Below the pieces are notes generated by a model that did not search any database, had not been told where the DNA came from, and saw only the letters and a list, made by a program, of their open reading frames with translations. Below are positions 1-14,560 of a DNA stretch of 14,560 nt, piece after piece (position 1 is the first letter of the stretch; each line of letters begins with the position of its first letter). This DNA is from a virus. Taxonomy: Duplodnaviria; Heunggongvirae; Uroviricota; Caudoviricetes. The DNA lies in the IMG/VR virus record IMGVR_UViG_2681813225_000010, positions 1 to 14,560 of that record. One strand, 5' to 3'. The position numbers and the translations under genes were made by a program.

Positions 1-24
1 AGTCTCCAGGATTCCCGGGGCGGT

Positions 25-3852
<3,828 letters not shown>

Positions 3853-4042
3853 GCTTACCTTCCCTGAACGAGCTAACATAAATGCGCCCTTTCTAGCACA
3901 GCGAAAAAATGTAAATCCTGATAGCAATATGATTGAAAATTAATAACTTTTCGTTAGGCAGTTTTGGGTGTGAGTTGCAAGAGGGGAGACTACTGAATAA
4001 CTCAAGTTTTATAATCGAGGGGAAAATGGTGATGGCGTTCAT

Positions 4043-4075
4043 AGCAAAACGCCCTCAACCATAAAGGTCGAGGGC
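4043..4075 (-). terminator. Rho-independent terminator downstream of tRNA-Asn
   Basis: On the minus strand a 7-bp GC-rich stem (CGCCCTC/GAGGGCG, 4050-4056 and 4069-4075) with a 12-nt loop is followed by TTTTGCT (complement of 4043-4049). Confidence 0.5.
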
Positions 4076-4165
4076 GCTTAAGATGTTAAAAACCCGCTAT
4101 CCGTTAAAAAACAATGTTCAACTAAGGTCAGTGACATTGCGCTAAAAAAGCGAATTTTTAGAATT

Positions 4166-4241
4166 TGGCTCCTCTGACTGGACTCGAACCAGTGACATAC
4201 GGATTAACAGTCCGCCGTTCTACCGACTGAACTACAGAGGA
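4166..4241 (-). tRNA. asnT: tRNA-Asn (anticodon GUU)
   Basis: The reverse complement reads UCCUCUGUAGUUCAGUCGGUAGAACGGCGGACUGUUAAUCCGUAUGUCACUGGUUCGAGUCCAGUCAGAGGAGCCA, a 76-nt cloverleaf with GUU anticodon and CCA end. The paralog name is from context (next to mtfA and yeeJ), since E. coli tRNA-Asn copies are identical. Confidence 0.93.
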
Positions 4242-4259
4242 ATCGTGTGAACGGGGCGC

Positions 4260-4288
4260 ATATTACTTAGCGGTACCTTGTCTGTCAA
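4260..4288 (-). promoter_or_regulatory. Putative sigma70 promoter of the tRNA-Asn gene
   Basis: Minus strand shows -35 TTGACA (complement of 4283-4288), a 17-bp spacer, -10 TAATAT (complement of 4260-4265), then a GC-rich discriminator (GCGCCCCG) about 11 nt before the mature tRNA 5' end, typical of stringently controlled tRNA promoters. Confidence 0.5.
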
Positions 4289-4341
4289 CACTAAATTTCA
4301 TAAGTCATTTCAATTGGTTAATTAATCTGCAAAGTTGTTAA

Positions 4342-5139
4342 TTAATGAACATTCGTCGCCGAAAACGAGTCTGTATCATTAGTGCGATGCAGTCTCTGCA
4401 AAGGATCTTGTTGATAAAATTGGCAGAAACGTTGCCACAATGAAGGGAAACGAGGAGCAAAAAGTTCTGGGGCGCTAAAGAAATATTCAGAAAGTACGGC
4501 AAAACATTCAGCAGGATCACTGGCAGCATAAGCATCAATGCTCGCCGCATTCTCGCCAACCAATTCGATTTCTTCCTGAATGTTGTTCATTGCAGCATGA
4601 AGATCGTGTTCCCAGCCAGCAACCTCACGCAACGGAATAAAGGGAACTCCGCTGGCGCGATCGCCGTTACGGGTGTCCAGCTTATGAGCGACTTCATGAA
4701 TAATCAGGTTAAAACCAGAAGCATCAAAAGAATCTTGTATATCCAACCAGTTCAAAACGATAGGCCCTTGCTGCCAGCTCTGACCTGACTGAACAATACG
4801 TTGGTTATGCACCAGACCGATATCGTCTTCCCATTCATCATCGACCACAAATGGCGCAGGATAAATTAAGACTTCATGAAAACCATCCAGCCATTCCAGT
4901 CCTAACTCCAGAACGGGTAGGCAAAATAGAAGTGCTATCCGGCAGCTTCTTAATGAATCCAGTTCAAAGCCCTGTAAAGGAACAAGCCGCTTTTGCTGTA
5001 AAAAACGTTCGGCAAGAGTGACTAATTTGCTTTGTTCCTGTTCCGTCAGACCCGTTAAAAGGGGGATCGATAGTGCTTCCTGCCAGGGAAGGGCAGTTTG
5101 ATGTGCTGATTCTTGTACTTTCCAGGGCCACTTAATCAT
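4342..5139 (-). CDS. mtfA: MtfA (Mlc titration factor A), zinc-dependent peptidase family, 265 aa
   Basis: ORF track 4342..5178(-). Start trimmed to the ATG giving [11 protein letters not shown] (complement 5137-5139). Contains the HEVAH zinc-binding motif ([10 protein letters not shown]). Sits between tRNA-Asn and serU as in E. coli. Confidence 0.9.
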
Positions 5140-5188
5140 CGTTTTGCTCGCAAACTCGTCACTTGAACAAAATTGCACGGACAGGGAC

Positions 5189-5197
5189 TGTTAAAAT
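5189..5197 (+). promoter_or_regulatory. Putative extended -10 element (TGtTAAAAT) of a serU promoter
   Basis: TGTTAAAAT at 5189-5197 lies about 35 nt upstream of the mature tRNA-Ser 5' end. No convincing -35 found. Confidence 0.3.
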
Positions 5198-5232
5198 GCC
5201 AAATTTCCTGGCATCATGGCAACCATCTGAAC

Positions 5233-5322
5233 GGAGAGATGCCGGAGCGGCTGAACGGACCGGTCTCGAAAACCGGAGTGGGGGCAACTCCACCGGGGGT
5301 TCAAATCCCCCTCTCTCCGCCA
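5233..5322 (+). tRNA. serU: tRNA-Ser (anticodon CGA), 90 nt including long variable arm and CCA
   Basis: GGAGAGAUGCCGGAGCGGCUGAACGGACCGGUCUCGAAAACCGG... with anticodon loop CUCGAAA (anticodon CGA), long variable arm, T-arm GGGGGUUCAAAUCCCCC, and CCA at 5320-5322. Prophage-type genes begin immediately 3'. Confidence 0.93.
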
Positions 5323-5367
5323 AAATTCAATCACTTATACATCATTAAGTCAGTGACAAAAATCACA

Positions 5368-5404
5368 CTTGGAATTACTTGGAATATTTTCTTGGAATAT
5401 TTTC
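5368..5404. repeat. Three direct CTTGGAAT repeats, the last two inside an exact 13-bp tandem repeat (TTGGAATATTTTC x2); candidate integrase arm-type binding sites in attL
   Basis: CTTGGAAT at 5368-5375, 5378-5385 and 5391-5398. TTGGAATATTTTC at 5379-5391 and 5392-5404. The first copy sits on the last integrase-fragment codons and the other two lie downstream of its stop, between that fragment and the tRNA 3' end. Confidence 0.3.
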
Positions 5405-5845
5405 AGGTAACGGGACATCAAGTGTCGGTGAAACTTTAACCTTCCTGTCATAGATTAGCACTTGCCCCTCGGTTTTGTGACCAGAGAAAAGTTGCTTATC
5501 CCGACTGCTTCCTTCATAGTCTGAAATTCCTTTCGCCTTCAGATCATGAAAGGTGAAGTCGGTTAAAATACCTGAAATTTTGCCTGCGCGATTTCTTGCT
5601 TCTACCCACATTTCGTTAAAGCCTTTGTACATATATCGGTTGCCGTATTGATTACTGATTACATAGGCGGATGTTGGTAACTGTTTTGCTTTTTCGATCG
5701 CCGCCTGTAATCGTGGACTCCATGCTTTTATCTGTTTTTTTCCTGTTTTCCCTTGCTGGATAAAGATTCCGTCGTTTCCAATCTGCTCCCATTTCAGCGA
5801 TAACACATCGGAAACCCTCGCTGCACACAGATAGGCAATTTCCAT
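5375..5845 (-). pseudogene. Tyrosine recombinase (phage integrase) C-terminal catalytic-domain fragment only (156 codons); N-terminal half absent
   Basis: The translation carries the C-terminal catalytic signature of lambda-family integrases (FTFHDLKAKG..., LFSGHKTEGQVLIYDRK with the presumed catalytic Tyr). It reads toward the tRNA 3' end. No upstream minus-strand ORF of 60 aa or more continues it (5846-6078), and full-length enzymes are roughly 330-400 aa. Confidence 0.75.
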
Positions 5846-6078
5846 TGCGATAAAAACAGGAAGAGGTGCAACGCTTAATACTGGTGTACGTCAGTTGCCT
5901 GCTGAGAGATGTCCTGCGATTGAACGAGCAACAAAAGGTGGTGTCCTGTGTGAAGAACTTCGTCCTGATGTTGATTGGACATACTTACGACGCTCGTCAT
6001 GTTATTCGCAGAATATGTCGATGAAGCAACCAAATGACGAAAACGATCATACCCGAAGCATCAAGAGGCAAATGATTC

Positions 6079-6504
6079 ATGAAAATCAAGCATGAACACA
6101 TCCGCATGGCGATGAATGCCTGGGCGCGTCCTGATGGCGAAAAAGTTCCAGCAGCTGGAATAACCCAGGCTTATTTTGAGTTGGGGATGACGTTTCCTGA
6201 ACTGTATGACGACAGCCATCCGGAAGCCCTGGCTCGCAATACCCAGAAAATTTTCCGCTGGGTAGAGAAAGACACCCCTGATGCAGTTGAAAAAATTCAG
6301 GCGTTGTTACCAGCGATCGAAAAGGCAATGCCACCTTTGCTGGTGGCCAGAATGCGCAGCCACAGTTCAGCTTATTTTCGGGAGCTGGTGGAGACGCGGG
6401 AGCGACTGGTGAGAGACGCTGATGATTTTGTCGCAGTGGCAATCGCCGGTTTCAATCAGATGAACCGTGGTGGCCCGGCAGGAAATGCTGTGGCAGTACA
6501 TTGA
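6079..6504 (+). CDS. YdaT-family prophage protein (141 aa)
   Basis: ORF track. N-terminus MKIKHEHI... is as I recall for YdaT-like proteins of Rac-type prophages. It sits immediately upstream of the O-like and DnaC-like genes (ydaT-ydaU-ydaV order). AAGAGG SD-like motif 11 nt upstream. Confidence 0.65.
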   Translation: MKIKHEHIRMAMNAWARPDGEKVPAAGITQAYFELGMTFPELYDDSHPEALARNTQKIFRWVEKDTPDAVEKIQALLPAIEKAMPPLLVARMRSHSSAYFRELVETRERLVRDADDFVAVAIAGFNQMNRGGPAGNAVAVH

Positions 6505-6575
6505 CTGACAATAGCCGTATCGAATCGCTTCCGGCAACTCGTGAGTAAAAAGATTCGGTATCAGAAGAGGTGAGT

Positions 6576-7658
6576 ATGGCTAACGCCTGGCTCAGATTAT
6601 GGCATGACATGCCAAATGACCCTAAGTGGCGAACAATTGCCAGGGTGTCAGGGCAGCCAATTGCAACAGTGATGGCAGTGTATATCCACCTCCTGGTGAG
6701 CGCGTCACGAAATGTCACGCGAGGTCACATTGATGTCACGACAGAAGATTTGGCAAGTGCGCTCGACGTGACAGAAGAGGTAATTGATTCAATTTTGCAG
6801 ACGATGCAGGGGCGGGTACTTGATGGTGATTTAATCACTGGATGGGAAAAACGCCAGGTGCTTAAAGAGGACAACGGCAATATTTCGCAAACCGCAAAAT
6901 CTCCTGCAGAGCGCAAGAGGGCGCAGCGAGAGAGGGAAAGAAAGCGGGAACAAAATGGCGATTGTCACGGCGCGTCACGAAATGTCACGCACATGTCACG
7001 ACGAGTCACGACAGATAAAGATACAGATAAAGATACAGATAAAGATACAGATCAAGAAGATCAAAACACTATGGTCCATGGCGTAAAAAACGCCACGAAC
7101 CAGGCAGGGGATGTTCAGACCGTCAATCCTGGTCAGCCAGCAGGCACGACACCGGAAGCCGATTCAGCGTATGCGCTGAAAGCCGATTCGGGCGCTGTGC
7201 AGCAGGTGATGACCGCAAGGCCGGAGCAATCACACCAACTGCAGCAGCCTGAAGCCGATTCCGCCATTCAGCGGGAAGCCGATCGGGTAGTCCCGGAAAA
7301 CACCGGGCAGCCTGTGGGACGAGTGGATTATCCGGATGTGTTCGAACAGGTCTGGCGGGAATACCCGTTGCGTGCTGGGGCAAACCCGAAGAAATCCGCT
7401 TTCAGTGCCTGGAAGGCCAGATTACGCGAGGGGGTGCCACCAGAGGCCATACTGGATGGTGTGAGGCGTTACGCAAGATACCTGGCGGCTACCGGGAAAA
7501 CGGGAACGGAATTTGTTCAGCGAGCGACGACGTTTTTTGGGCCGGACCGGAATTTTGAAAACCCCTGGTTGCTCCCGGTAAGCGGCACGAACAACCAGCG
7601 TTGTGTGAATCATATTTCTGAACCGGATACCGAAATTCCGCCGGGATTCAGGGGGTGA
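6576..7658 (+). CDS. Phage replication initiation protein (lambda O-like / YdaU-like) containing the replication origin
   Basis: ORF track 6570..7658. I favour the ATG at 6576 (MANAWLRLWHD...), which has AGAAGAGG upstream. The gene contains two iteron arrays and a tandem repeat (see repeat features), like lambda ori inside O. It directly precedes a DnaC-like loader gene. Confidence 0.8.
   Translation: MANAWLRLWHDMPNDPKWRTIARVSGQPIATVMAVYIHLLVSASRNVTRGHIDVTTEDLASALDVTEEVIDSILQTMQGRVLDGDLITGWEKRQVLKEDNGNISQTAKSPAERKRAQRERERKREQNGDCHGASRNVTHMSRRVTTDKDTDKDTDKDTDQEDQNTMVHGVKNATNQAGDVQTVNPGQPAGTTPEADSAYALKADSGAVQQVMTARPEQSHQLQQPEADSAIQREADRVVPENTGQPVGRVDYPDVFEQVWREYPLRAGANPKKSAFSAWKARLREGVPPEAILDGVRRYARYLAATGKTGTEFVQRATTFFGPDRNFENPWLLPVSGTNNQRCVNHISEPDTEIPPGFRG
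6701..6745. repeat. Iteron array 1: four GTCAC(G) repeats phased at 10-11 bp
   Basis: GTCAC at 6704, 6714, 6724 and 6735. The 20-mer CGCGTCACGAAATGTCACGC (6701-6720) recurs exactly at 6971-6990. Confidence 0.6.
6961..7052. repeat. Iteron array 2 (five GTCAC repeats) followed by an A+T-rich 12-bp tandem repeat (ACAGATAAAGAT x3.5); candidate ori core
   Basis: GTCAC at 6964, 6974, 6984, 6995 and 7005 (spacing 10, 10, 11, 10). Then ACAGATAAAGAT at 7011-7022, 7023-7034 and 7035-7046, plus a partial copy to 7052. In the protein this region reads DKDTDKDTDKDTD. Confidence 0.6.
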
Positions 7659-7664
7659 TGTGGC

Positions 7665-8411
7665 ATGAAAAACATTGCGGCAGCCGGGGTTCTTGAACGT
7701 ATTCGCAGACTTGCACCACAGGCGTCGGTTCCACCGTACCGGACGGTGGAGGAGTGGCGGGAATGGCAACTTGTTGAAGGACGAAAACGCAGCGAGGAGA
7801 TTAACCGCCAGAATCACCAGTTGCGGGTGGAAAAAATCCTGAATCGTTCGGGCATCCAGCCTCTGCACAGCAAATGCTCGTTTGCGAATTATCAGGTGCA
7901 GAACGACGGGCAAAAATACGCGCTGAGCCAGGCCAAATCCATAGCTGACGAACTGATGACCGGGTGCACGAATTTTGTGTTCAGCGGTAAAACCGGCACC
8001 GGGAAAAATCACCTTGCAGCGGCGATGGGTAACCGGCTGATGGCGAAGGGGCGCAGCGTGATTATCGTCACCGTGTCTGATGTCATGAGCGTGTTGCATG
8101 ACAGCTACGACAACGGCAAATCCGGGGAAAAATTTTTACAGGAGCTTTGCAGTGTTGATTTGCTGGTCCTGGATGAAATAGGCGTTCAGCGGGAGACGAA
8201 AAACGAGCAGGTGGTATTACACCAGATAATTGATCGCCGGACAGCATCACTGTGCAGTGTCGGGATGTTAACAAACCTGAATCATGCCGCAATGAGCACG
8301 CTTCTTGGTGAGAGGATTATGGACCGCATGACCATGAACGGTGGTCGGTGGGTGACGTTTAACTGGGATAGCTGGCGTCCAAATGTCAGCAATCAGAGGG
8401 TTGTGAAGTAA
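7665..8411 (+). CDS. DnaC-like replicative helicase loader (AAA+ ATPase, IstB/DnaC family; YdaV-like)
   Basis: Walker A FSGKTGTGKNHLAAAMG and Walker B LLVLDEIG. The ATG lies 6 nt after the O-like stop, with AGGGGGTGA upstream. Confidence 0.85.
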   Translation: MKNIAAAGVLERIRRLAPQASVPPYRTVEEWREWQLVEGRKRSEEINRQNHQLRVEKILNRSGIQPLHSKCSFANYQVQNDGQKYALSQAKSIADELMTGCTNFVFSGKTGTGKNHLAAAMGNRLMAKGRSVIIVTVSDVMSVLHDSYDNGKSGEKFLQELCSVDLLVLDEIGVQRETKNEQVVLHQIIDRRTASLCSVGMLTNLNHAAMSTLLGERIMDRMTMNGGRWVTFNWDSWRPNVSNQRVVK

Positions 8412-8432
8412 TTTTTGTTGGAGGACGTTTTA

Positions 8433-9149
8433 ATGGAAACTGTATTTGACGCACTGAAAGCACTGAAAAAAGCCTCTTCACAGGTAGTGGCATCGCGCCT
8501 TGGAATCAGCCGCGAAGATGCTGTCAACGAACTGTGGAAACTGAAGCGCCGTGGTGAAGCGGATAACAAGGGTTCGATGTGGTGGCTGATTCAGGCTGGT
8601 GAAAGTGAACCAGTGTCACCGGTACCGAAAGTGACAGCGCAAATGCTGACTGAGGCGATTGAACATCATGGCCCACAAACGGCGGATGAGCTGGCACTGA
8701 TGTTCGGGATTACCTCCCGCCGGGCGAATTCATCACTGGCCATGGCAATCAGCAAAGGGCGTCTGATTCGCGTGAATCAGGGCGGTAAATTTCGGTACTG
8801 CATACCGGGCGCTGATTTACCGGCTGAGCCGAAAGCCGCATCCATAGCGGAAACGGATGGTAAAGCCTTTCCTCAGCCAGCAGGTGTTGCGTTACCAGTC
8901 GGGGAAGCGGAAACACAGGAAGAAATAAAAACGGAAAGTGTGGCGGTCACAGTGCAGTCACAGCCGTCGTTCACCAGAAAGCATCCGGATGGTCTGATTT
9001 TACCATCGCTGCATGTGGCTAACCGCGAGCTGCGCCGGGCAAAAGGTCAGGTTCAGAAGTGGGAGCGAGTCTGCGCCGCGCTGCGGGAGCTGAACAAGTG
9101 CCGGGATATTCTCCGGGATATTACCGCCACCAGAGAACAGCAGCGGTGA
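8433..9149 (+). CDS. Prophage protein with two N-terminal winged-helix-like segments and a C-terminal coiled-coil-like tail; function unknown
   Basis: ORF track 8415..9149 begins at an alternative start codon. I prefer the ATG at 8433 (METVFDALK...), with GGAGGA 8 nt upstream. It follows the DnaC-like gene, as ydaW-type genes do. Confidence 0.65.
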
Positions 9150-9181
9150 GTGGGTGGAAGACGTGGTGCCGGGCGGAAATC

Positions 9182-9463
9182 ATGATACTCCGGCAGTGTG
9201 CGGGAACGATGAAGGTAAAAAGCGTTGGCGCACTTATCGGACGAACTGAAGCGGCAGTGAGAACGAAGGCACGGGAGCTGGGCATCAGCATGATGTTACG
9301 TGGTGATTTTCACCCGTCGGCAAAATATTCTCAGCGTGATATTGAGCTGGCGCGGCAACTGCATCAGAGAGGCATGCAAAGAAGGGAAATTGCCAGAAAA
9401 TTAGGCATGCCGCTGCGCATAGTGAATAACTACGTTTATTTCGACAGGAGGGTGTCTGCGTGA
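9182..9463 (+). CDS. Small basic protein with HTH-like segments; putative DNA-binding regulator
   Basis: In-frame ATG at 9182 (MILRQCAG...), with an alternative ATG at 9209 (MKVKS...). The C-terminal QRREIARKLGMPLRIVNNYV looks like a helix-turn-helix. ORF 9059..9463 in the track is an extension overlapping the upstream gene. Confidence 0.5.
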   Translation: MILRQCAGTMKVKSVGALIGRTEAAVRTKARELGISMMLRGDFHPSAKYSQRDIELARQLHQRGMQRREIARKLGMPLRIVNNYVYFDRRVSA

Positions 9464-9687
9464 AAATCCTGTATCAGGATTACGGCCCGGTGGGGCAGGT
9501 GGTTATCAGCAGTACTGTAATGGAGTTTCGGAAGCATAACCGTGTGGTGGATGCTGTGCTGTTAACCTGTCCGGGGATATCGGCGAGTCGTGCAGGTGTG
9601 TTTATTATGAAGACGAAATTATATGGCAGTAAGGCGTGGATAAAGAAGGCGTATCGTGTAGCGTTGCAGGAGGTTAACAGTGAGTGA
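9460..9687 (+). CDS. Hypothetical small basic phage protein (75 aa)
   Basis: GTG start overlaps the upstream stop (GTGA, 9460-9463). AGGAGGG lies 9 nt upstream. No recognisable motif. Confidence 0.45.
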   Translation: MKILYQDYGPVGQVVISSTVMEFRKHNRVVDAVLLTCPGISASRAGVFIMKTKLYGSKAWIKKAYRVALQEVNSE

Positions 9688-9991
9688 AATTAAAGAAATG
9701 CCGGTAGTTCGTGACGGATATGGCTACTGGACACATCCTGAATATGAAAAATTCTGTGATGGTCGGGAATATATTTCAACGGAAGAGTTTAACGCCTGGA
9801 TGGAGGAAAATAATCTTCAATACGTCCTCTGCTTCAGAGATGAAGGATGTGCTGACCTTGATGCGTGTGATGCTGATATTTCTGCATGGGAACCGGAACG
9901 ACCAGAGGGCGATGGCTGGTTTATTGGTTCCATTCATGATACGGAAGATGGCCCGGTTTGTGTCTGGTTGCGAAATAAGGCTGAAGCATAA
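9680..9991 (+). CDS. Hypothetical strongly acidic small protein (103 aa); possible DNA-mimic-type anti-restriction/anti-defence candidate
   Basis: GTG start at 9680 with AGGAGG 6 nt upstream; overlaps the previous gene by 8 nt. By my hand count about 25 of 103 residues are Asp/Glu and about 8 are Lys/Arg. Confidence 0.5.
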   Translation: MSEIKEMPVVRDGYGYWTHPEYEKFCDGREYISTEEFNAWMEENNLQYVLCFRDEGCADLDACDADISAWEPERPEGDGWFIGSIHDTEDGPVCVWLRNKAEA

Positions 9992-10337
9992 AGGCGATAA
10001 ACCAACTAACAACTAAATACTGAAGATTTAAATCAGAAACGATTTTTATTAAATCCTTAACCGGAGGGATTCCTGCACCCTCAGAACATCAGGAGGCCGC
10101 CCGAAAGGGCGGTAAGAAATGAAACATTATTTAGAAAAAATTACCCACGAAAGAGCAGAACAACAGAGTTTCTGTTTTTCATTCTGTTTATAGTGTTGAT
10201 GATACCGATATCCCCGCTATTACTGGTCTGGATAATTGGAAGGACATTTGAACCAGTTATTGAGCTATATACCGATGTGACATGGGAATCATTCAGCGCA
10301 CTGCACAATAAAATTAATCCGTATAAGGAAAACTGAT

Positions 10338-10895
10338 ATGAGCACTATTACCAGAGAACGCGCGGAGATTAAATCATACATCACAGGCTTCCTGAGCGAC
10401 TCGGCGCACGATAACAAGTCTTCAGACAGCCTGCTGGCTAATGTGTTTCGTATCGCGCTGGCATCACTGGAAGCAGAGCCGATAGCAATGGTAGTGCCTG
10501 ATGAAATGGATTTGCTTACCTGCCATCTCGACGGTGTAACTAAAACATATGCTGATGGCTGGAACGCCTGCCGCGTCGCCATGCTTCAGGCCGGAAACTT
10601 TCGGGAAAATAAGAATTCGTCAACCAACAATTTTCGGGAAATCTCGGAAACGTCAACCAGATCTCCGATAACTCTGGATGGCTGGATAAGCTGTACTGAG
10701 CGAATGCCTGAAAAGAGCCAGAACGTGCTTATTTCGATGAATATCGATAGCGAGGCTGGGCCATTAATATATTCCGCACGCTATCTCGGAGGCACGTTCC
10801 GGCGCGGAGGTATAGCAGTTAGTCCGGGTAATGATCTTAGGCAAGCAACCCACTGGATGTCGCTACCAGAACCGCCGCAGGAGGTGAATCAATGA
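10338..10895 (+). CDS. Phage protein with an N-terminal domain of unknown function and a C-terminal DUF551-like domain
   Basis: ORF track. The C-terminus (DGWISCTERMPE...THWMSLPEPP) matches the DUF551 signature as I recall it. No search was run. Confidence 0.65.
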   Translation: MSTITRERAEIKSYITGFLSDSAHDNKSSDSLLANVFRIALASLEAEPIAMVVPDEMDLLTCHLDGVTKTYADGWNACRVAMLQAGNFRENKNSSTNNFREISETSTRSPITLDGWISCTERMPEKSQNVLISMNIDSEAGPLIYSARYLGGTFRRGGIAVSPGNDLRQATHWMSLPEPPQEVNQ

Positions 10896-10975
10896 CCTGG
10901 CCTGAAGCATTCACAACGGTAGGAATTGCGATGGCGGTGGCGCTGGTGGTGTATTCGATTTGCCGCTGGGGATAA
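10892..10975 (+). CDS. 27-codon ORF for a hydrophobic (single predicted TM) peptide, translationally coupled to the upstream gene
   Basis: The ATG at 10892 overlaps the upstream stop (ATGA). A strong SD (AGGAGGTGA, 10880-10888) lies 3-4 nt upstream. Product MTWPEAFTTVGIAMAVALVVYSICRWG. Below the 60-aa cutoff of the ORF track. Confidence 0.4.
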   Translation: MTWPEAFTTVGIAMAVALVVYSICRWG

Positions 10976-10982
10976 AAACGGT

Positions 10983-11010
10983 TTGCGGGAAAAGGATAGT
11001 TAAGTAGAAT
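10983..11010 (+). promoter_or_regulatory. Putative promoter of the hok/mok mRNA
   Basis: -35 TTGCGG (10983-10988), 16-bp spacer, -10 TAGAAT (11005-11010). The predicted start near 11015-11017 coincides with the 5' element that pairs with the transcript 3' end. Confidence 0.4.
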
Positions 11011-11062
11011 TGCAGCGGGTGCTTGAGGCTATCTGCCTCGGGCATGAACACCAACGGCAGAT

Positions 11063-11137
11063 AGAGAAAAGCCCCAGTTAACATTACGCGTCCTGCAAGA
11101 CGCTTAACATTAATCTGAGGCTCAATCCATGCTGAAC
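11063..11137 (-). ncRNA. sok: Putative Sok-like antisense RNA overlapping the mok translation initiation region; ends approximate
   Basis: Minus-strand promoter-like elements: -35 TTGCCT (complement of 11167-11172), 17-bp spacer, -10 TAACCT (complement of 11144-11149). The predicted transcript would be antisense to the mok SD and start codon. A U-run (complement of 11061-11066) could mark the 3' end, but I found no clean terminator hairpin. Confidence 0.3.
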
Positions 11138-11341
11138 ACATGTAGGTTAGCCTCTTACGTGCCGAAAGGCAAGGAGAAGCAGGCTATGAAGCAGCAAAAG
11201 GCGATGTTAATCGCCCTGATCGTCATCTGTTTAACCGTCATAGTGACGGCACTGGTAACGAGGAAAGACCTCTGCGAGGTGCGAATCCGAACCGGTCAGA
11301 CGGAGGTCGCTGTCTTCGTAGACTACGAATCTGAGAAGTAA
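11129..11341 (+). CDS. mok: Mok (modulation of killing) reading frame, an in-frame N-terminal extension of hok
   Basis: ATG at 11129 with GAGG 8 nt upstream. The N-terminus MLNTCR... resembles chromosomal mokC as I recall it; the frame continues through hok. Confidence 0.55.
   Translation: MLNTCRLASYVPKGKEKQAMKQQKAMLIALIVICLTVIVTALVTRKDLCEVRIRTGQTEVAVFVDYESEK
11186..11341 (+). CDS. hok: Hok/Gef-family type I toxin (51 aa membrane peptide)
   Basis: MKQQKAMLIALIVICLTVIVTALVTRKDLCEVRIRTGQTEVAVFVDYESEK has a TM segment followed by the conserved TRK(D/S)LCE...REVAAF-like C-terminal region of Hok/Gef toxins. AAGGAG lies 9 nt upstream of the ATG. Confidence 0.85.
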   Translation: MKQQKAMLIALIVICLTVIVTALVTRKDLCEVRIRTGQTEVAVFVDYESEK

Positions 11342-11348
11342 GAGACCA

Positions 11349-11407
11349 GGCGGGGGAGTAATCTCCCGCCACCTCTGATGTGTCAGGCATCCTCAACGCA
11401 CCCGCGC
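11349..11407 (+). promoter_or_regulatory. hok mRNA 3' structure: GC-rich terminal stem-loop plus an fbi-like element complementary to the mRNA 5' end
   Basis: Stem-loop GGCGGGGG-AGUAAU-CUCCCGCC at 11349-11370. The 3' segment CCTCAACGCACCCGC (11391-11405) is complementary to GCGGGTGCTTGAGG (11015-11028), giving 8 bp + 6 bp with one bulge. Confidence 0.55.
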
Positions 11408-11460
11408 TTTACCATACTGAAAATGCTGTTTGAATGTTCATCTCTGAAAGAGGACTATGA

Positions 11461-11805
11461 ATGAAAAAGGTATTGATTGCAGCACTTATTTCCGGTGTGT
11501 CTTTTGGCGCTTTTGCACAGCAGGGTGGTTTCCAGGGGCCAGAAGCAGAGCGTTCAACAGTAGCGCAGGCAAAAGAACTGAAGGATGATGCATGGGTTAT
11601 CCTTGAAGGGAGCATCGTTAAAAAAGTGGGTGATGAACGTTATGAGTTTCGTGACAATAGCGGGACAATTGTCACGGATATTGATGACAGCGTATGGGCC
11701 GGGCAGAATGTTTCTCCGAAAGACAAAGTAAGAATTGAGGGTGAAATTGATAAAGACCTGAGCAGTGTTGAAGTTGATGTAAAGGCACTGAAATTATTAA
11801 AGTAA
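11461..11805 (+). CDS. YgiW/YdeI-family (BOF, bacterial OB-fold, DUF388) periplasmic protein with signal peptide
   Basis: Signal peptide MKKVLIAALISGVSFGAFAQQ and clear similarity to YgiW-type proteins (QGGFQGP..., TIVTDIDD..., VEVDVK). AAAGAGGA lies 6 nt upstream. Followed by its own terminator. Confidence 0.85.
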   Translation: MKKVLIAALISGVSFGAFAQQGGFQGPEAERSTVAQAKELKDDAWVILEGSIVKKVGDERYEFRDNSGTIVTDIDDSVWAGQNVSPKDKVRIEGEIDKDLSSVEVDVKALKLLK

Positions 11806-11821
11806 CCGCCCCTGCTTGTTA

Positions 11822-11848
11822 AGCCCGTCTTACTGACGGGTTTTCTGT
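11822..11848 (+). terminator. Rho-independent terminator after the BOF gene
   Basis: Stem CCCGTC/GACGGG (11824-11829 and 11835-11840) with a 5-nt loop, followed by TTTTCTGTTT. Confidence 0.6.
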
Positions 11849-11926
11849 TTGTACATTCCGGCGTATTGCCTTACAATTCGCGCAGTCAGCCTGAACAACT
11901 GACACCTGCTGTCACCGGAGAATCCG

Positions 11927-12199
11927 ATGACACAACACATAAAATCCCACAATTCTGAAGCCGACCCGGAAATTAAGCAGGGGAGGCGTTTTCGTGCGCC
12001 TCAGTATGGCTGGTTTCACTATCTGTTCTGTACGATCGATGAGGCAGATATGCTTCAAGAGGCGTATCTGCGTCGCGGTGTCCGTGTGGAGCTGAGTCTG
12101 AACGCTGATCGTCTGACCTGGACCGTTTCTGTATATCTTCCTGTTCGTGCACATTTGCCACGGACACATGCCTGCTACCGTCAGCGCGTCTGGAGGTAA
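11927..12199 (+). CDS. Hypothetical phage protein (90 aa), first gene of a coupled pair
   Basis: ATG at 11927 with GGAG 6 nt upstream. Its stop TAA (12197-12199) sits just upstream of the GTG start of the next gene. Confidence 0.5.
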   Translation: MTQHIKSHNSEADPEIKQGRRFRAPQYGWFHYLFCTIDEADMLQEAYLRRGVRVELSLNADRLTWTVSVYLPVRAHLPRTHACYRQRVWR

Positions 12200-12200
12200 T

Positions 12201-13250
12201 GTGCGGGTATTACTTCGACCTGTTCTGGTTCCGGAACTCGGGCTGGTGGTCCTTAAGCCCGGTCGTGAATCATTGCCAGTTTTTCATCGCGGCAGGGTGC
12301 TGGTGGAGCCGGAACCGAAAAACATGCGGGCGCTGCCATCTGGAGCGGTTCCTACTGTTCGCCAGCCGCTGGCGGAAGATAAATCACTGCTGCCATTTTT
12401 CAGCGATGAGCGGGTGATTCGTGCAGCTGGCGGCGCTGGTGCACTGTCTGACTGGTTATTACGTCACGTGAAATCCTGCCAGTGGCCACACGGCGATTAT
12501 CATCACAGCGAAACCGTTATTCACAGTTACGGTGCTGGCGCAATGGTGTTGTGCTGGCACTGCGACAACCAGCTGCGCGACCAGACCTCCGAATCACTTG
12601 AGCAACTTACTCAACAAAATCTGACAGCCTGGATGATTGACGTCATACGCCATGTAATGAATGGCACGCAGGAGCGGGAATTATCGCTGGCTGAATTATC
12701 CTGGTGGGCAGTCTGCAATCAGGTGGTGGACGCATTACCTGAGGCAGTATCGCGTCGCTCTCTGGGATTACCGGCGGAAAAAATCCGCTCCGTATACCGT
12801 GAAAGCGACATCATACCGGGAGAACAGACCGCCACCAGCATACTGAAGCAGCGCACAAAAAATATTGCGCTACCGCCTCACACCCACCAGCAACAGAACC
12901 CACCACAGGAAAAGACGGTGGTCAGCATTGCCGTTGATCCGGAGTCTCCGGAATCCTTCATGAAACGACCTAAACGTCGCCGCTGGGTAAATGAGAAATA
13001 CACACGCTGGGTAAAGACACAGCCGTGTGCGTGTTGTGGTAAGCCAGCGGACGATCCTCATCATCTGATTGGTCATGGTCAGGGCGGAATGGGAACAAAA
13101 TCCCACGATATTTTCACGCTACCGCTGTGTCGGGAGCATCACAACGAGCTTCATGCGGATCCGCTGGCGTTCGAAGAAAAGCATGGTTCCCAGGTTGATT
13201 TAATTTTTCGTTTTCTTGATCACGCCTTTGCAACCGGCGTGCTCGGGTAA
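12201..13250 (+). CDS. DUF968-like phage protein with a C-terminal zinc-finger/HNH-like motif (nin-region protein)
   Basis: ORF track gives 12147..13250. I favour the GTG at 12201, 4 nt after a GGAGG motif and just past the upstream stop. C-terminus: CACCGKPADDPHHLIGHG...LCREHHNELH (Cys pairs and HH pairs as in HNH-type folds). Immediately precedes rusA. Confidence 0.65.
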   Translation: MRVLLRPVLVPELGLVVLKPGRESLPVFHRGRVLVEPEPKNMRALPSGAVPTVRQPLAEDKSLLPFFSDERVIRAAGGAGALSDWLLRHVKSCQWPHGDYHHSETVIHSYGAGAMVLCWHCDNQLRDQTSESLEQLTQQNLTAWMIDVIRHVMNGTQERELSLAELSWWAVCNQVVDALPEAVSRRSLGLPAEKIRSVYRESDIIPGEQTATSILKQRTKNIALPPHTHQQQNPPQEKTVVSIAVDPESPESFMKRPKRRRWVNEKYTRWVKTQPCACCGKPADDPHHLIGHGQGGMGTKSHDIFTLPLCREHHNELHADPLAFEEKHGSQVDLIFRFLDHAFATGVLG

Positions 13251-13262
13251 AAGAGGTTACTG

Positions 13263-13622
13263 ATGCGTATAGAGTTTGTTTTGCCTTACCCGCCGACGGT
13301 GAACACCTACTGGCGACGTCGTGGCAGCACATATTTTGTATCAAAAGCCGGTGAGCGTTATCGCCGGGATGTGGCACTTATTGTTCGCCAGCAGCGGCTG
13401 AAATTAAACCTGTCCGGAAGGCTGGCGATAAAGATTATTGCAGAGCCACCGGATAAGCGCCGTCGTGACCTGGACAATATCCTGAAAGCACCACTGGATG
13501 CGCTGACGCATGCCGGACTTCTCATAGACGACGAGCAGTTTGATGAAATCAATATTGTGCGCGGCCAGCTCGTTTCTGGTGGGCGGCTGGGCGTGAAGAT
13601 TTACAAAATTGAAAGTGAGTGA
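13263..13622 (+). CDS. rusA: RusA Holliday-junction resolvase (crossover junction endodeoxyribonuclease)
   Basis: Similarity to RusA as I recall it: PDRRRRDLDNLQKA in the reference versus PDKRRRDLDNILKA here, plus a GGRL motif near the C-terminus. AAAGAGG lies 5 nt upstream of the ATG. Confidence 0.9.
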   Translation: MRIEFVLPYPPTVNTYWRRRGSTYFVSKAGERYRRDVALIVRQQRLKLNLSGRLAIKIIAEPPDKRRRDLDNILKAPLDALTHAGLLIDDEQFDEINIVRGQLVSGGRLGVKIYKIESE

Positions 13623-13630
13623 GCATAAAT

Positions 13631-14185
13631 ATGATATACTCGGAAATTACAGGCAAAAGCGGTGAGCATTTACGCCTGAAAACGCTGGAAAGTGTCTGGA
13701 TCCAGGGGAAACTGCGTATGTGGGGGCGTTGGTCGTATATTGGCGACGGTAAGACGGGAAATATGTTCAACCAATTACTGACCTCTAAAAAGCTGACAAA
13801 AACGGCAATTAACGAGGCGCTCCGGAGGATGAAAAAAGCGGGTCTGGACAAACCTGAACTTGAGGCTTTTTTGTGGGATATGATCAACGGCAATCAAAAA
13901 AGCTGGCTGGCACATTGTACCGATTCAGAGGCGTTAATAATCGACAGGGTTATTGGTGAAGTACTGGCAGGTTATCCCGGGCTGCTCAATGTTCTGAGTC
14001 AGCGTTATGTGGGGCGGGGGATGACTAAGCGCAAAATGGCTGAACTGCTGAATGATGCACATCCGGAATGGAGTTTAAGAACCTGTGAAAGACGCATTGA
14101 GCATTGGCTAAAGGTGGCAGAATTTATTTTGTACAAACCAATGGTTATGGCTTTTGGTATAGATAAAAAAGTTATTGCTTTTTGA
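13631..14185 (+). CDS. Putative late-gene antiterminator Q-like protein (phage 82 / QuuD-type family)
   Basis: Position after rusA and immediately before a promoter-like region and a strong terminator (the PR'-tR' arrangement). Weak motif resemblance to QuuD-type proteins from memory (W-G-x-W, LLTSK, YVGRGMT). The start is ambiguous: the GTG at 13619 overlaps the rusA stop, the ATG at 13631 is in frame. Confidence 0.55.
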   Translation: MIYSEITGKSGEHLRLKTLESVWIQGKLRMWGRWSYIGDGKTGNMFNQLLTSKKLTKTAINEALRRMKKAGLDKPELEAFLWDMINGNQKSWLAHCTDSEALIIDRVIGEVLAGYPGLLNVLSQRYVGRGMTKRKMAELLNDAHPEWSLRTCERRIEHWLKVAEFILYKPMVMAFGIDKKVIAF

Positions 14186-14263
14186 CGTAAAAACTGCTTC
14201 AATTCCGGTACGCTTCGCAAAGCTGTACCGCGAGGCGAATAGCAGACATGGACATTTGAAAGA

Positions 14264-14288
14264 GCCCGCTTTTTGCGGGTTTTTTTAT
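14264..14288 (+). terminator. Strong Rho-independent terminator (tR'-like) downstream of the Q-like gene
   Basis: Stem GCCCGC/GCGGGT (14264-14269 and 14275-14280) with a TTTTT loop, followed by a 6-7 T run (14280-14286). Confidence 0.65.
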
Positions 14289-14409
14289 GACTGAAAAACG
14301 GCACGGGGCGTTAAATGCGCTGGTGGTTGCGAATACCGGTCTTTCTGCTTGCTGGCTTTTTGGACAAGAGTTATTGGTGTGTCACGTTAACCGGAAAGGG
14401 TAAAAAGAC

Positions 14410-14560
14410 ATGCTGAAACAGCAGGATATGACAGAAACCGCCAGAGTTGTGTTTGATGAATTAAGTGCCACCGAACCGGCGACAGTCGGGGAGATTGCAC
14501 AGAATACGTACCTTTCACGCGAACGCTGCCAGCTAATACTGACCCAGCTTGTTATGGCGG
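14410..14560 (+). CDS. 5' part of an ORF running off the window end; product has a winged-helix-like segment
   Basis: ATG at 14410 with a GGAAAGGG purine tract about 9 nt upstream. Translation MLKQQDMTETARVVFDELSATEPATVGEIAQNTYLSRERCQLILTQLVMA... is open to the window edge. Confidence 0.3.
   Translation, partial: MLKQQDMTETARVVFDELSATEPATVGEIAQNTYLSRERCQLILTQLVMA

Follow-up and report, generated by a model that had tools for sequence, protein, structure and literature searches.

Few variable phage accessory proteins have a known sensor, and orf184 of phage mEp213 (gp45, also UDP0184, AFM76385.1) is among them. When expressed alone it causes programmed cell death in ECOR59; transposon suppressors of the killing mapped to gop-beta-cII, a P4-hotspot locus, in 'protein beta' and 'protein gop'. 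The killing was reconstituted in a lab strain, and the gene was described as sharing its accessory region with ral (Silas et al., bioRxiv 10.1101/2023.04.06.535777). Lambda and P1 are among the phages that the gop-beta-cII locus, which is encoded by the P4 satellite, protects against; it is regarded as a toxin-antitoxin (TA)-like abortive infection (Abi) system (PMC9122126). Here we analyse three small consecutive genes, termed gA, gB and gC (Table 1), in positions 1 to 14,560 of the viral record IMGVR_UViG_2681813225_000010; this whole stretch of 14,560 nucleotides is referred to as the window. The element that carries the three genes is a defective lambdoid, Rac-like prophage remnant of E. 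coli.

A first-pass annotation, made from the letters alone, recognised none of the three proteins, regarded the genes as a candidate module and suggested that the acidic protein gC could be a DNA mimic. Two of them can be recognised: gA as a putative helix-turn-helix (HTH) DNA-binding protein and gC as a homologue of the experimentally studied orf184. We conclude with high confidence that gC belongs to the orf184 family and to no three-gene module.

The orf184 family and its member in the window

Comparison of gC with mEp213 gp45 gave 43% identity over 103 aa (BLASTP, E 3e-29; tblastn, E 6e-20). The homology covers the full length of both proteins, which have the same size and the same net charge and share the Trp-rich motifs GYWTHP...W.P..P.G.GWF.GSIHDTEDGP.C.W.R. 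Both genes stand alone, each within a variable accessory region of a lambdoid phage. The two differ in position, as orf184 follows N in the PL operon of mEp213 whereas gC lies in the nin region of the PR operon, and triggering of gop-beta-cII has been shown for the mEp213 protein only. The window gC might trigger it as well, a tentative expectation to which we give somewhat less than an even chance.

gC also matches phrog_1372 (E 4e-56), and no Pfam or NCBIfam model matches it. Literature searches by accession, PHROG number and phage name returned nothing, and the EVADES anti-defence compendium (268 proteins) holds no gC-like sequence. The family is large: clustering at 90% identity gives 228 clusters in Enterobacterales, and clustering at 50% gives 765 representatives in all. 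Members are present in 83 phage records, and the family extends over temperate and some virulent phages of Gammaproteobacteria and Burkholderia; its hosts and phages include Escherichia, Erwinia, Burkholderia, Pseudomonas, Vibrio, Klebsiella, Yersinia PY54, the P1-like D6 and mEp213. A Rac-SA53-type phage carries a copy that is 92% identical to gC.

Strong acidity is a property of the whole family (median net charge -14, pI 4.05-5.8 among 45 single-domain representatives). For gC itself the earlier hand count of 25 acidic and 8 basic residues proved exact; its pI is 4.12 and its charge density, -0.165 per residue, falls between those of Arn (-0.10) and Ocr (-0.24). The conserved positions are mainly aromatic or structural: W17, H19, P20, W40, W70, P72, P75, G77, G79, W80, F81, G91, C94 and W96, to which R11, R98 and a hairpin turn, D87-T-E-D-G, can be added. 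His19 is conserved in 98% of the family, Arg11 in 85-89% and Arg98 in 85-87%, and five Trp residues are conserved. The most acidic stretch of gC is a variable loop, residues 53-69, and no more than about 10 positions carry an acidic residue in 60% or more of the sequences.

The AlphaFold2 (AF2) model of gC is confident (pLDDT 82.5) and consists of two helices and a three-stranded sheet. The protein is modelled as one acidic alpha/beta domain, about 100 residues long, whose conserved core is rich in Trp and His. A phmmer search of the PDB sequences returned chance matches and no solved structural relative. A Cys/His zinc site (H19, C26, H86, C94) was considered and rejected; in distant members C26 is below 70% conservation and H86 barely reaches 70%.

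About 65 of the 148 family representatives listed have extra domains of at least 50 residues. Fusion partners include Lar zinc ribbons (3 representatives), an Rv2179c-like exonuclease (2), RdgC, DHH/DHHA1 and Ea22-like coiled coils; examples are P0155, P0216, P0255, L055 3998-4525 (PY54 ORF48) and L059 2773-3705. Fusions with uncharacterised C-terminal extensions occur in PY54, in Klebsiella LASTA and in a Burkholderia phage. The gC domain behaves like other shuffling accessory modules of lambdoid phages. As with the early and nin accessory proteins of these phages (Ead/Ea22-like, DUF551, DUF4014 and DUF1627), gC is small, has overlapping start and stop codons, recombines at gene boundaries and shuffles as a domain, and fusions join its domain to Ea22-like coiled-coil N-termini or DUF551-family (phrog_60) segments. 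Unlike them, it has no Pfam model and has, through orf184, an experimental phenotype; we know of no phenotype of that kind for DUF551, DUF4014, DUF1627 or Ead/Ea22-like proteins.

Homologues of gC occupy diverse genomic positions. In mEp213 the gene lies just after N in the PL operon and near Erf/Abc2. In a very common Salmonella Rac-like prophage (L063-L067 5001-5321) a 60%-identical homologue lies directly after recE-recT and before xis-int, and the same post-recT slot of the K-12 Rac prophage (L073 2734-2928) holds ralR/lar with the RalA sRNA, so that the two look like positional replacements of each other. In PY54 the homologue is surrounded by a Lar-like gene, exonucleases, a methyltransferase and dinI. 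The copies in phages of Providencia and Pseudomonas are beside DNA methyltransferases and near int, and in a Providencia phage it is part of an operon with RdgC, an HD hydrolase and a methyltransferase. It is therefore a stand-alone gene of variable accessory regions (nin in the window, PL operon or int-proximal elsewhere) with unconserved neighbours. These slots are typical of counter-defence and host-takeover genes, which is positional evidence only. The likeness to ral of lambda and lar/ralR of Rac is of the same kind: related phages have either kind of gene in the same accessory slots (after N, after recT), and some gC domains carry a fused Lar zinc ribbon, but there is no sequence relationship and gC lacks the CxxC zinc ribbon of Lar.

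Candidate activities of gC

The account that we favour, and hold to be rather better than an even bet, is that gA, gB and gC are three independent accessory genes and that gC is an acidic, protein-binding effector of the orf184 family, directed against a factor of the host or of a rival element and sensed by gop-beta-cII either directly or via its effect. Under this account gC would be made early in infection and act stoichiometrically. It would bind and disable, or redirect, a protein of the host or of a rival element, in the service of counter-defence or of host takeover, and gop-beta-cII would sense this action or gC itself. The narrower statement that gC is a counter-defence or host-takeover binder is one that we make tentatively, at less than even odds. 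Restriction alleviation is one candidate activity, since family members are found in the ral and lar/ralR slots and some of them carry a fused Lar zinc ribbon. A more specific form of the proposal, which is speculative and which we consider unlikely to hold in full, is that the family comprises small acidic inhibitors of a new fold acting on a conserved nucleic-acid-handling complex of the host, either a restriction-modification (R-M) enzyme, as for Ral and Lar, or a repair nuclease, with gop-beta-cII as a guard that fires on inhibition. Such a guard would also explain the restriction of lambda and P1.

That the family is tied to the interplay of phage and defence, as the first-pass annotation supposed, is borne out by the homologue that triggers an abortive infection system, and its description of gC as strongly acidic and biochemically uncharacterised agrees with our results. 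Several points weigh against the effector proposal. The sole phenotype, Abi triggering, was described in a preprint and for a homologue that is 43% identical, and a biochemical activity is known for no member of the family. In the published screen orf184 was absent from the counter-defence hits; Ocr, ArdA and Ral scored in other assays (10.1101/2023.04.06.535777). Acidity and location in an accessory slot are weak, non-specific indicators. The fusion partners were dropped as a guide to function, being heterogeneous, and some of the fusions may be gene-calling artefacts of metagenome contigs. Finally, xis, the leftward operon, the repressor (immunity) and PR appear to be deleted from the remnant, which makes the expression of the downstream genes, the trio included, uncertain in this strain.

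The most probable alternative, which we nevertheless regard as unlikely, places gC in phage DNA metabolism as an accessory or targeting domain that binds a recombination or repair factor of the host, such as RecBCD, SSB or RecA, or that aids recombination of the RecET/Erf type, with gop-beta-cII sensing the resulting disturbance. The gene positions directly 3' of recE-recT in the very common Salmonella prophages, near Erf/Abc2, among the exonuclease genes of PY54 and in the Providencia RdgC operon agree with such a role, as do the fusions to the Rv2179c-like 3'-5' exonuclease, RdgC and DHH/DHHA1. Moreover, lambda and P1 are restricted by gop-beta-cII, yet neither is among the 40 phage matches listed for gC, which include only the P1-like D6; this hints that what is sensed is a state of the host and not a protein. 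However, all of this support is positional, the few fusion partners, with 1-3 representatives each, are mixed, and the window gC lies in the nin region, far from recombination genes.

Somewhat less probable still is the DNA-mimic suggestion of the first-pass annotation, in which gC would be an anti-restriction protein of the Ocr/ArdA type, with carboxylates on its surface that mimic the backbone of DNA and so block type I R-M or another defence that binds DNA. Ocr (T7 gp0.3) and ArdA are likewise small, strongly acidic, early-expressed phage or plasmid proteins, and Ocr resembles orf184 as an Abi trigger, in its case of PARIS and EcoR22I. The charge of gC is in the right range, its acidity is conserved throughout the family, and the family uses slots that hold ral or lar in related phages, with 3 representatives fused to a Lar domain. 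Beyond charge the comparison fails: the fold, the conservation pattern and the published screen do not fit. No sequence or fold similarity of Ocr or ArdA to gC was found, the structure predicted for gC is compact, an alpha/beta domain built on an aromatic core, and not an elongated charge array, and anti-restriction activity has not been reported for the gC family.

We give very little credence to binding or modification of a small molecule, by an immune nucleotide sponge or a small enzyme acting through His19, Arg11 and Trp residues: the high conservation of these residues and of Arg98 and the similar size of known sponge proteins would suit it, but there is no structural or sequence match to a solved sponge or enzyme, the conserved aromatics serve equally well as the core of a small domain, and the putative metal site (C26, H86, C94) is not conserved in distant members.

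The questions of the orf184 target and of the gop-beta-cII cue have already been posed in the literature. A binding partner of gC, once found, would explain both the benefit to the phage and what gop-beta-cII detects. Prophages of Shiga-toxigenic E. coli (STEC) offer natural gC variants, with 43-100% identity, for testing the specificity of recognition. The family is very common, being present in many E. coli genomes and in a common Salmonella prophage, and it combines a confidently predicted fold with the lack of a solved relative.

Independent assortment of gA, gB and gC

All three genes are genuine, because their proteins are conserved in other genera. The reading frames listed by the first-pass annotation have identical counterparts in RefSeq NZ_CP027591, where gA is WP_000603384 ('DNA-binding protein') and gB and gC are WP_000699809 and WP_001289673 (both 'hypothetical protein'). 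No family support was found for alternative-frame or antisense open reading frames (ORFs) overlapping the trio, and an Rfam scan of the trio region identified no family. The stop of gA and the start of gB overlap in GTGA (9460-9463), and the stop of gB and the start of gC overlap in GTGAGTGA (9680-9687). At both junctions the Shine-Dalgarno (SD) box lies inside the preceding gene, so the features of translational coupling that had been proposed are present. The good SD box ascribed to each gene was found for gB and gC, both with a perfect AGGAGG, but not for gA, whose annotated ATG is preceded by just a weak GGCGGA-like box.

Table 1 Coordinates of the three genes and associated features in the window
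Feature	Position	Strand	Basis
gA, small basic protein, putative HTH DNA-binding; annotated ATG 9182 (93 aa), likely start GTG 9146 (105 aa)	9146..9463	+	RefSeq, phrog_323, Pfam, N-termini of homologues
gB, 75-aa basic protein, phrog_1001; GTG start in gA stop	9460..9687	+	
gC, 103-aa acidic protein, net charge -17, orf184/phrog_1372 family; GTG start in gB stop	9680..9991	+	Profile, BLASTP, AF2
SD box of gB, AGGAGG, 8 nt 5' of GTG	9446..9451	+	Sequence reading
SD box of gC, AGGAGG, 6 nt 5' of GTG	9668..9673	+	Sequence reading
DUF1627 gene, upstream, same transcription unit; TGA stop 9147-9149	8415..9149	+	PF07789 (E 9e-79), RefSeq, sequence

The term operon applies in part. The trio is part of a much longer co-directional unit and not a delimited operon of its own; a scan of the + strand between 8300 and 10500 found neither a sigma-70-like promoter nor an intrinsic terminator.

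In order to follow the gene neighbourhoods, we used a profile of gC homologues and examined 52 loci from other species. gB adjoined gC at none of these loci. gA was near gC at two, in Pantoea and Erwinia, and there it was downstream of gC, which is a different order. Small ORFs of 60-90 aa lie upstream of gC at many loci (74-75 aa in mEp213 and D6), and a conserved small upstream partner was therefore considered; it was rejected since these ORFs, including those of mEp213, PY54 and D6, have no relationship among themselves or with gB. The genes downstream of gC fall into many unrelated clusters and are as diverse as the upstream ones. In D6 and related plasmid prophages a gA homologue has a DUF4406 gene next to it and is 2 kb away from the element's own gC homologue.

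Within E. coli the picture was obtained from 5426 complete genomes. gC-like DNA was found at 1202 places in 780 of them, often twice per genome, and gB in 529. The contiguous trio is present in 518 genomes, in 501 of these at 99% identity or more, and recombination breakpoints of the trio fall at gene boundaries (H136, H137). The trio in E. coli is one near-clonal, recently spread DNA segment. gA, gB and gC are independently assorting accessory genes in the ordinary mosaic packing of lambdoid phages, and not a functional unit; the proposed module did not survive the co-occurrence check across genomes.

The opposite view, that the trio works as a unit in which, for example, the putative HTH regulator gA controls gB and gC as a basic/acidic TA-like or defence pair, is in our judgement highly improbable. 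The overlapping start and stop codons and strong SD boxes do imply tight co-expression, the pairing of a small basic with a small acidic protein looks, on the surface, like a type II TA pair, and the trio is contiguous in hundreds of E. coli genomes. But co-occurrence is lost outside the single near-clonal segment, each gene has different neighbours in other phages, the defence models of PADLOC match none of the three proteins, and orf184 was active alone in the published assay. In addition, the overlap style runs on up to the DUF1627 gene, as is usual for phage early operons.

gA, gB and the surrounding prophage remnant

gA is strongly basic, as the first-pass annotation had it, with 19 K/R against 7 D/E and a pI of 11.3. 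It matches phrog_323 'transcriptional regulator' (E 5e-23), and its family is named 'DNA-binding protein' in the source annotations. Several Pfam models find an HTH in the C-terminal half of gA, as in other small phage HTH regulators (phrog_323; Sigma70_r4_2/HTH_23-type), but unlike in those the window protein scores slightly below the gathering cut-offs: HTH_7 gave 22.3 bits (cut-off 23.8) and Sigma70_r4_2 16.7 (25.7), and HTH_23 was likewise under its cut-off. Homologues exceed them, with 26.6 for both Sigma70_r4_2 and HTH_23 in the 83%-identical P0288 and 29.9 in P0348. Judged by these matches, gA is a small DNA-binding protein with a predicted HTH in its C-terminal half. Read by eye, the N-terminal half (W...E...L / GRT..AV..K...LG) looks like a second HTH of the Myb/GcrA type. 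TPR/LGN matches of gA in a phmmer search of PDB sequences were discarded as compositional (0-1 stretches), and the Silas accessory-gene library contains no gA-like sequence.

The homologues of gA start 9-12 residues earlier than the annotated ATG. Because their conserved N-terminal extension, SGWK.WCRAEI (MSGWKRWCRAEIM...), is also encoded in frame here, the true start is probably the upstream GTG, and the annotated ATG would truncate the protein. This GTG overlaps the DUF1627 stop as a further GTGA. With this start, the chain of overlaps and coupling would reach up to the DUF1627 gene.

gB is an orphan small alpha/beta protein that is basic as well (11 K/R against 5 D/E, pI 9.8). It had no match in Pfam, NCBIfam or PADLOC, and no gB-like sequence is present in the Silas library. 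Its family, phrog_1001, is present in enterobacterial temperate phages. In Fels-1, Stx phages and phi191, homologues with 40-56% identity occupy the far end of the leftward operon, close to xis/int. STM0895 of Fels-1 (102 aa), which is directly 3' of the gB homologue, was considered as a gC homologue and rejected (E 4.1).

The 1.4 kb around the trio are 100% identical to annotated chromosomes of Shiga-toxigenic-type E. coli. In NZ_CP027591 the region adjoins yeeJ, tRNA-Asn, mtfA and tRNA-Ser, of which the tRNAs were confirmed separately. The gene order there, all on one strand, is integrase fragment, truncated ydaS, ydaT, replisome organiser, DnaC-like ATPase, DUF1627, gA, gB and gC, followed on the same strand by DUF4014, DUF551, hok, a YgiW-family gene, DUF968, RusA and a Q-like DUF1133 protein. 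The trio is thus at the equivalent of the lambda nin region, within a long rightward delayed-early operon that runs from replication through nin to Q. At the upstream end of this array, at window positions 5362-6107, a C-terminal integrase fragment beside tRNA-Ser (5233-5322) abuts the N-terminally truncated ydaS.

A G+C-rich hairpin, GGCCGCC-CGAA-GGGCGGU, of 7 bp and with no U tract, is located at 10096-10113 in the gap of about 100 nt that is 3' of gC. It does not qualify as a canonical intrinsic terminator, and the gap as a whole folds slightly better than shuffled sequences, no more (z -1.9). The DUF4014 coding sequence (CDS) that follows (10088-10336; phrog_1832 'released from the phage upon host infection') is given a non-canonical ATC start in RefSeq. 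Its profile match starts at residue 13, and the sole nearby ATG (10119) is in another frame, where it opens an ORF of 24 codons, which suggests a frameshift or an unusual start codon.

Further along the nin region there is a complete hok/sok type I TA locus, with an Rfam sok match of 113.5 bits at 11017-11191 and a Hok/Gef CDS that extends up to 11341. It is followed by a stress-tolerance gene of the YgiW/NirD family with a signal peptide (11461-11805). At the opposite end, yeeJ, a large inverse-autotransporter adhesin gene, occupies 25-3927 on the - strand and reaches the edge of the window; the annotation of the identical reference genome treats it as a pseudogene that an IS3 element has truncated.
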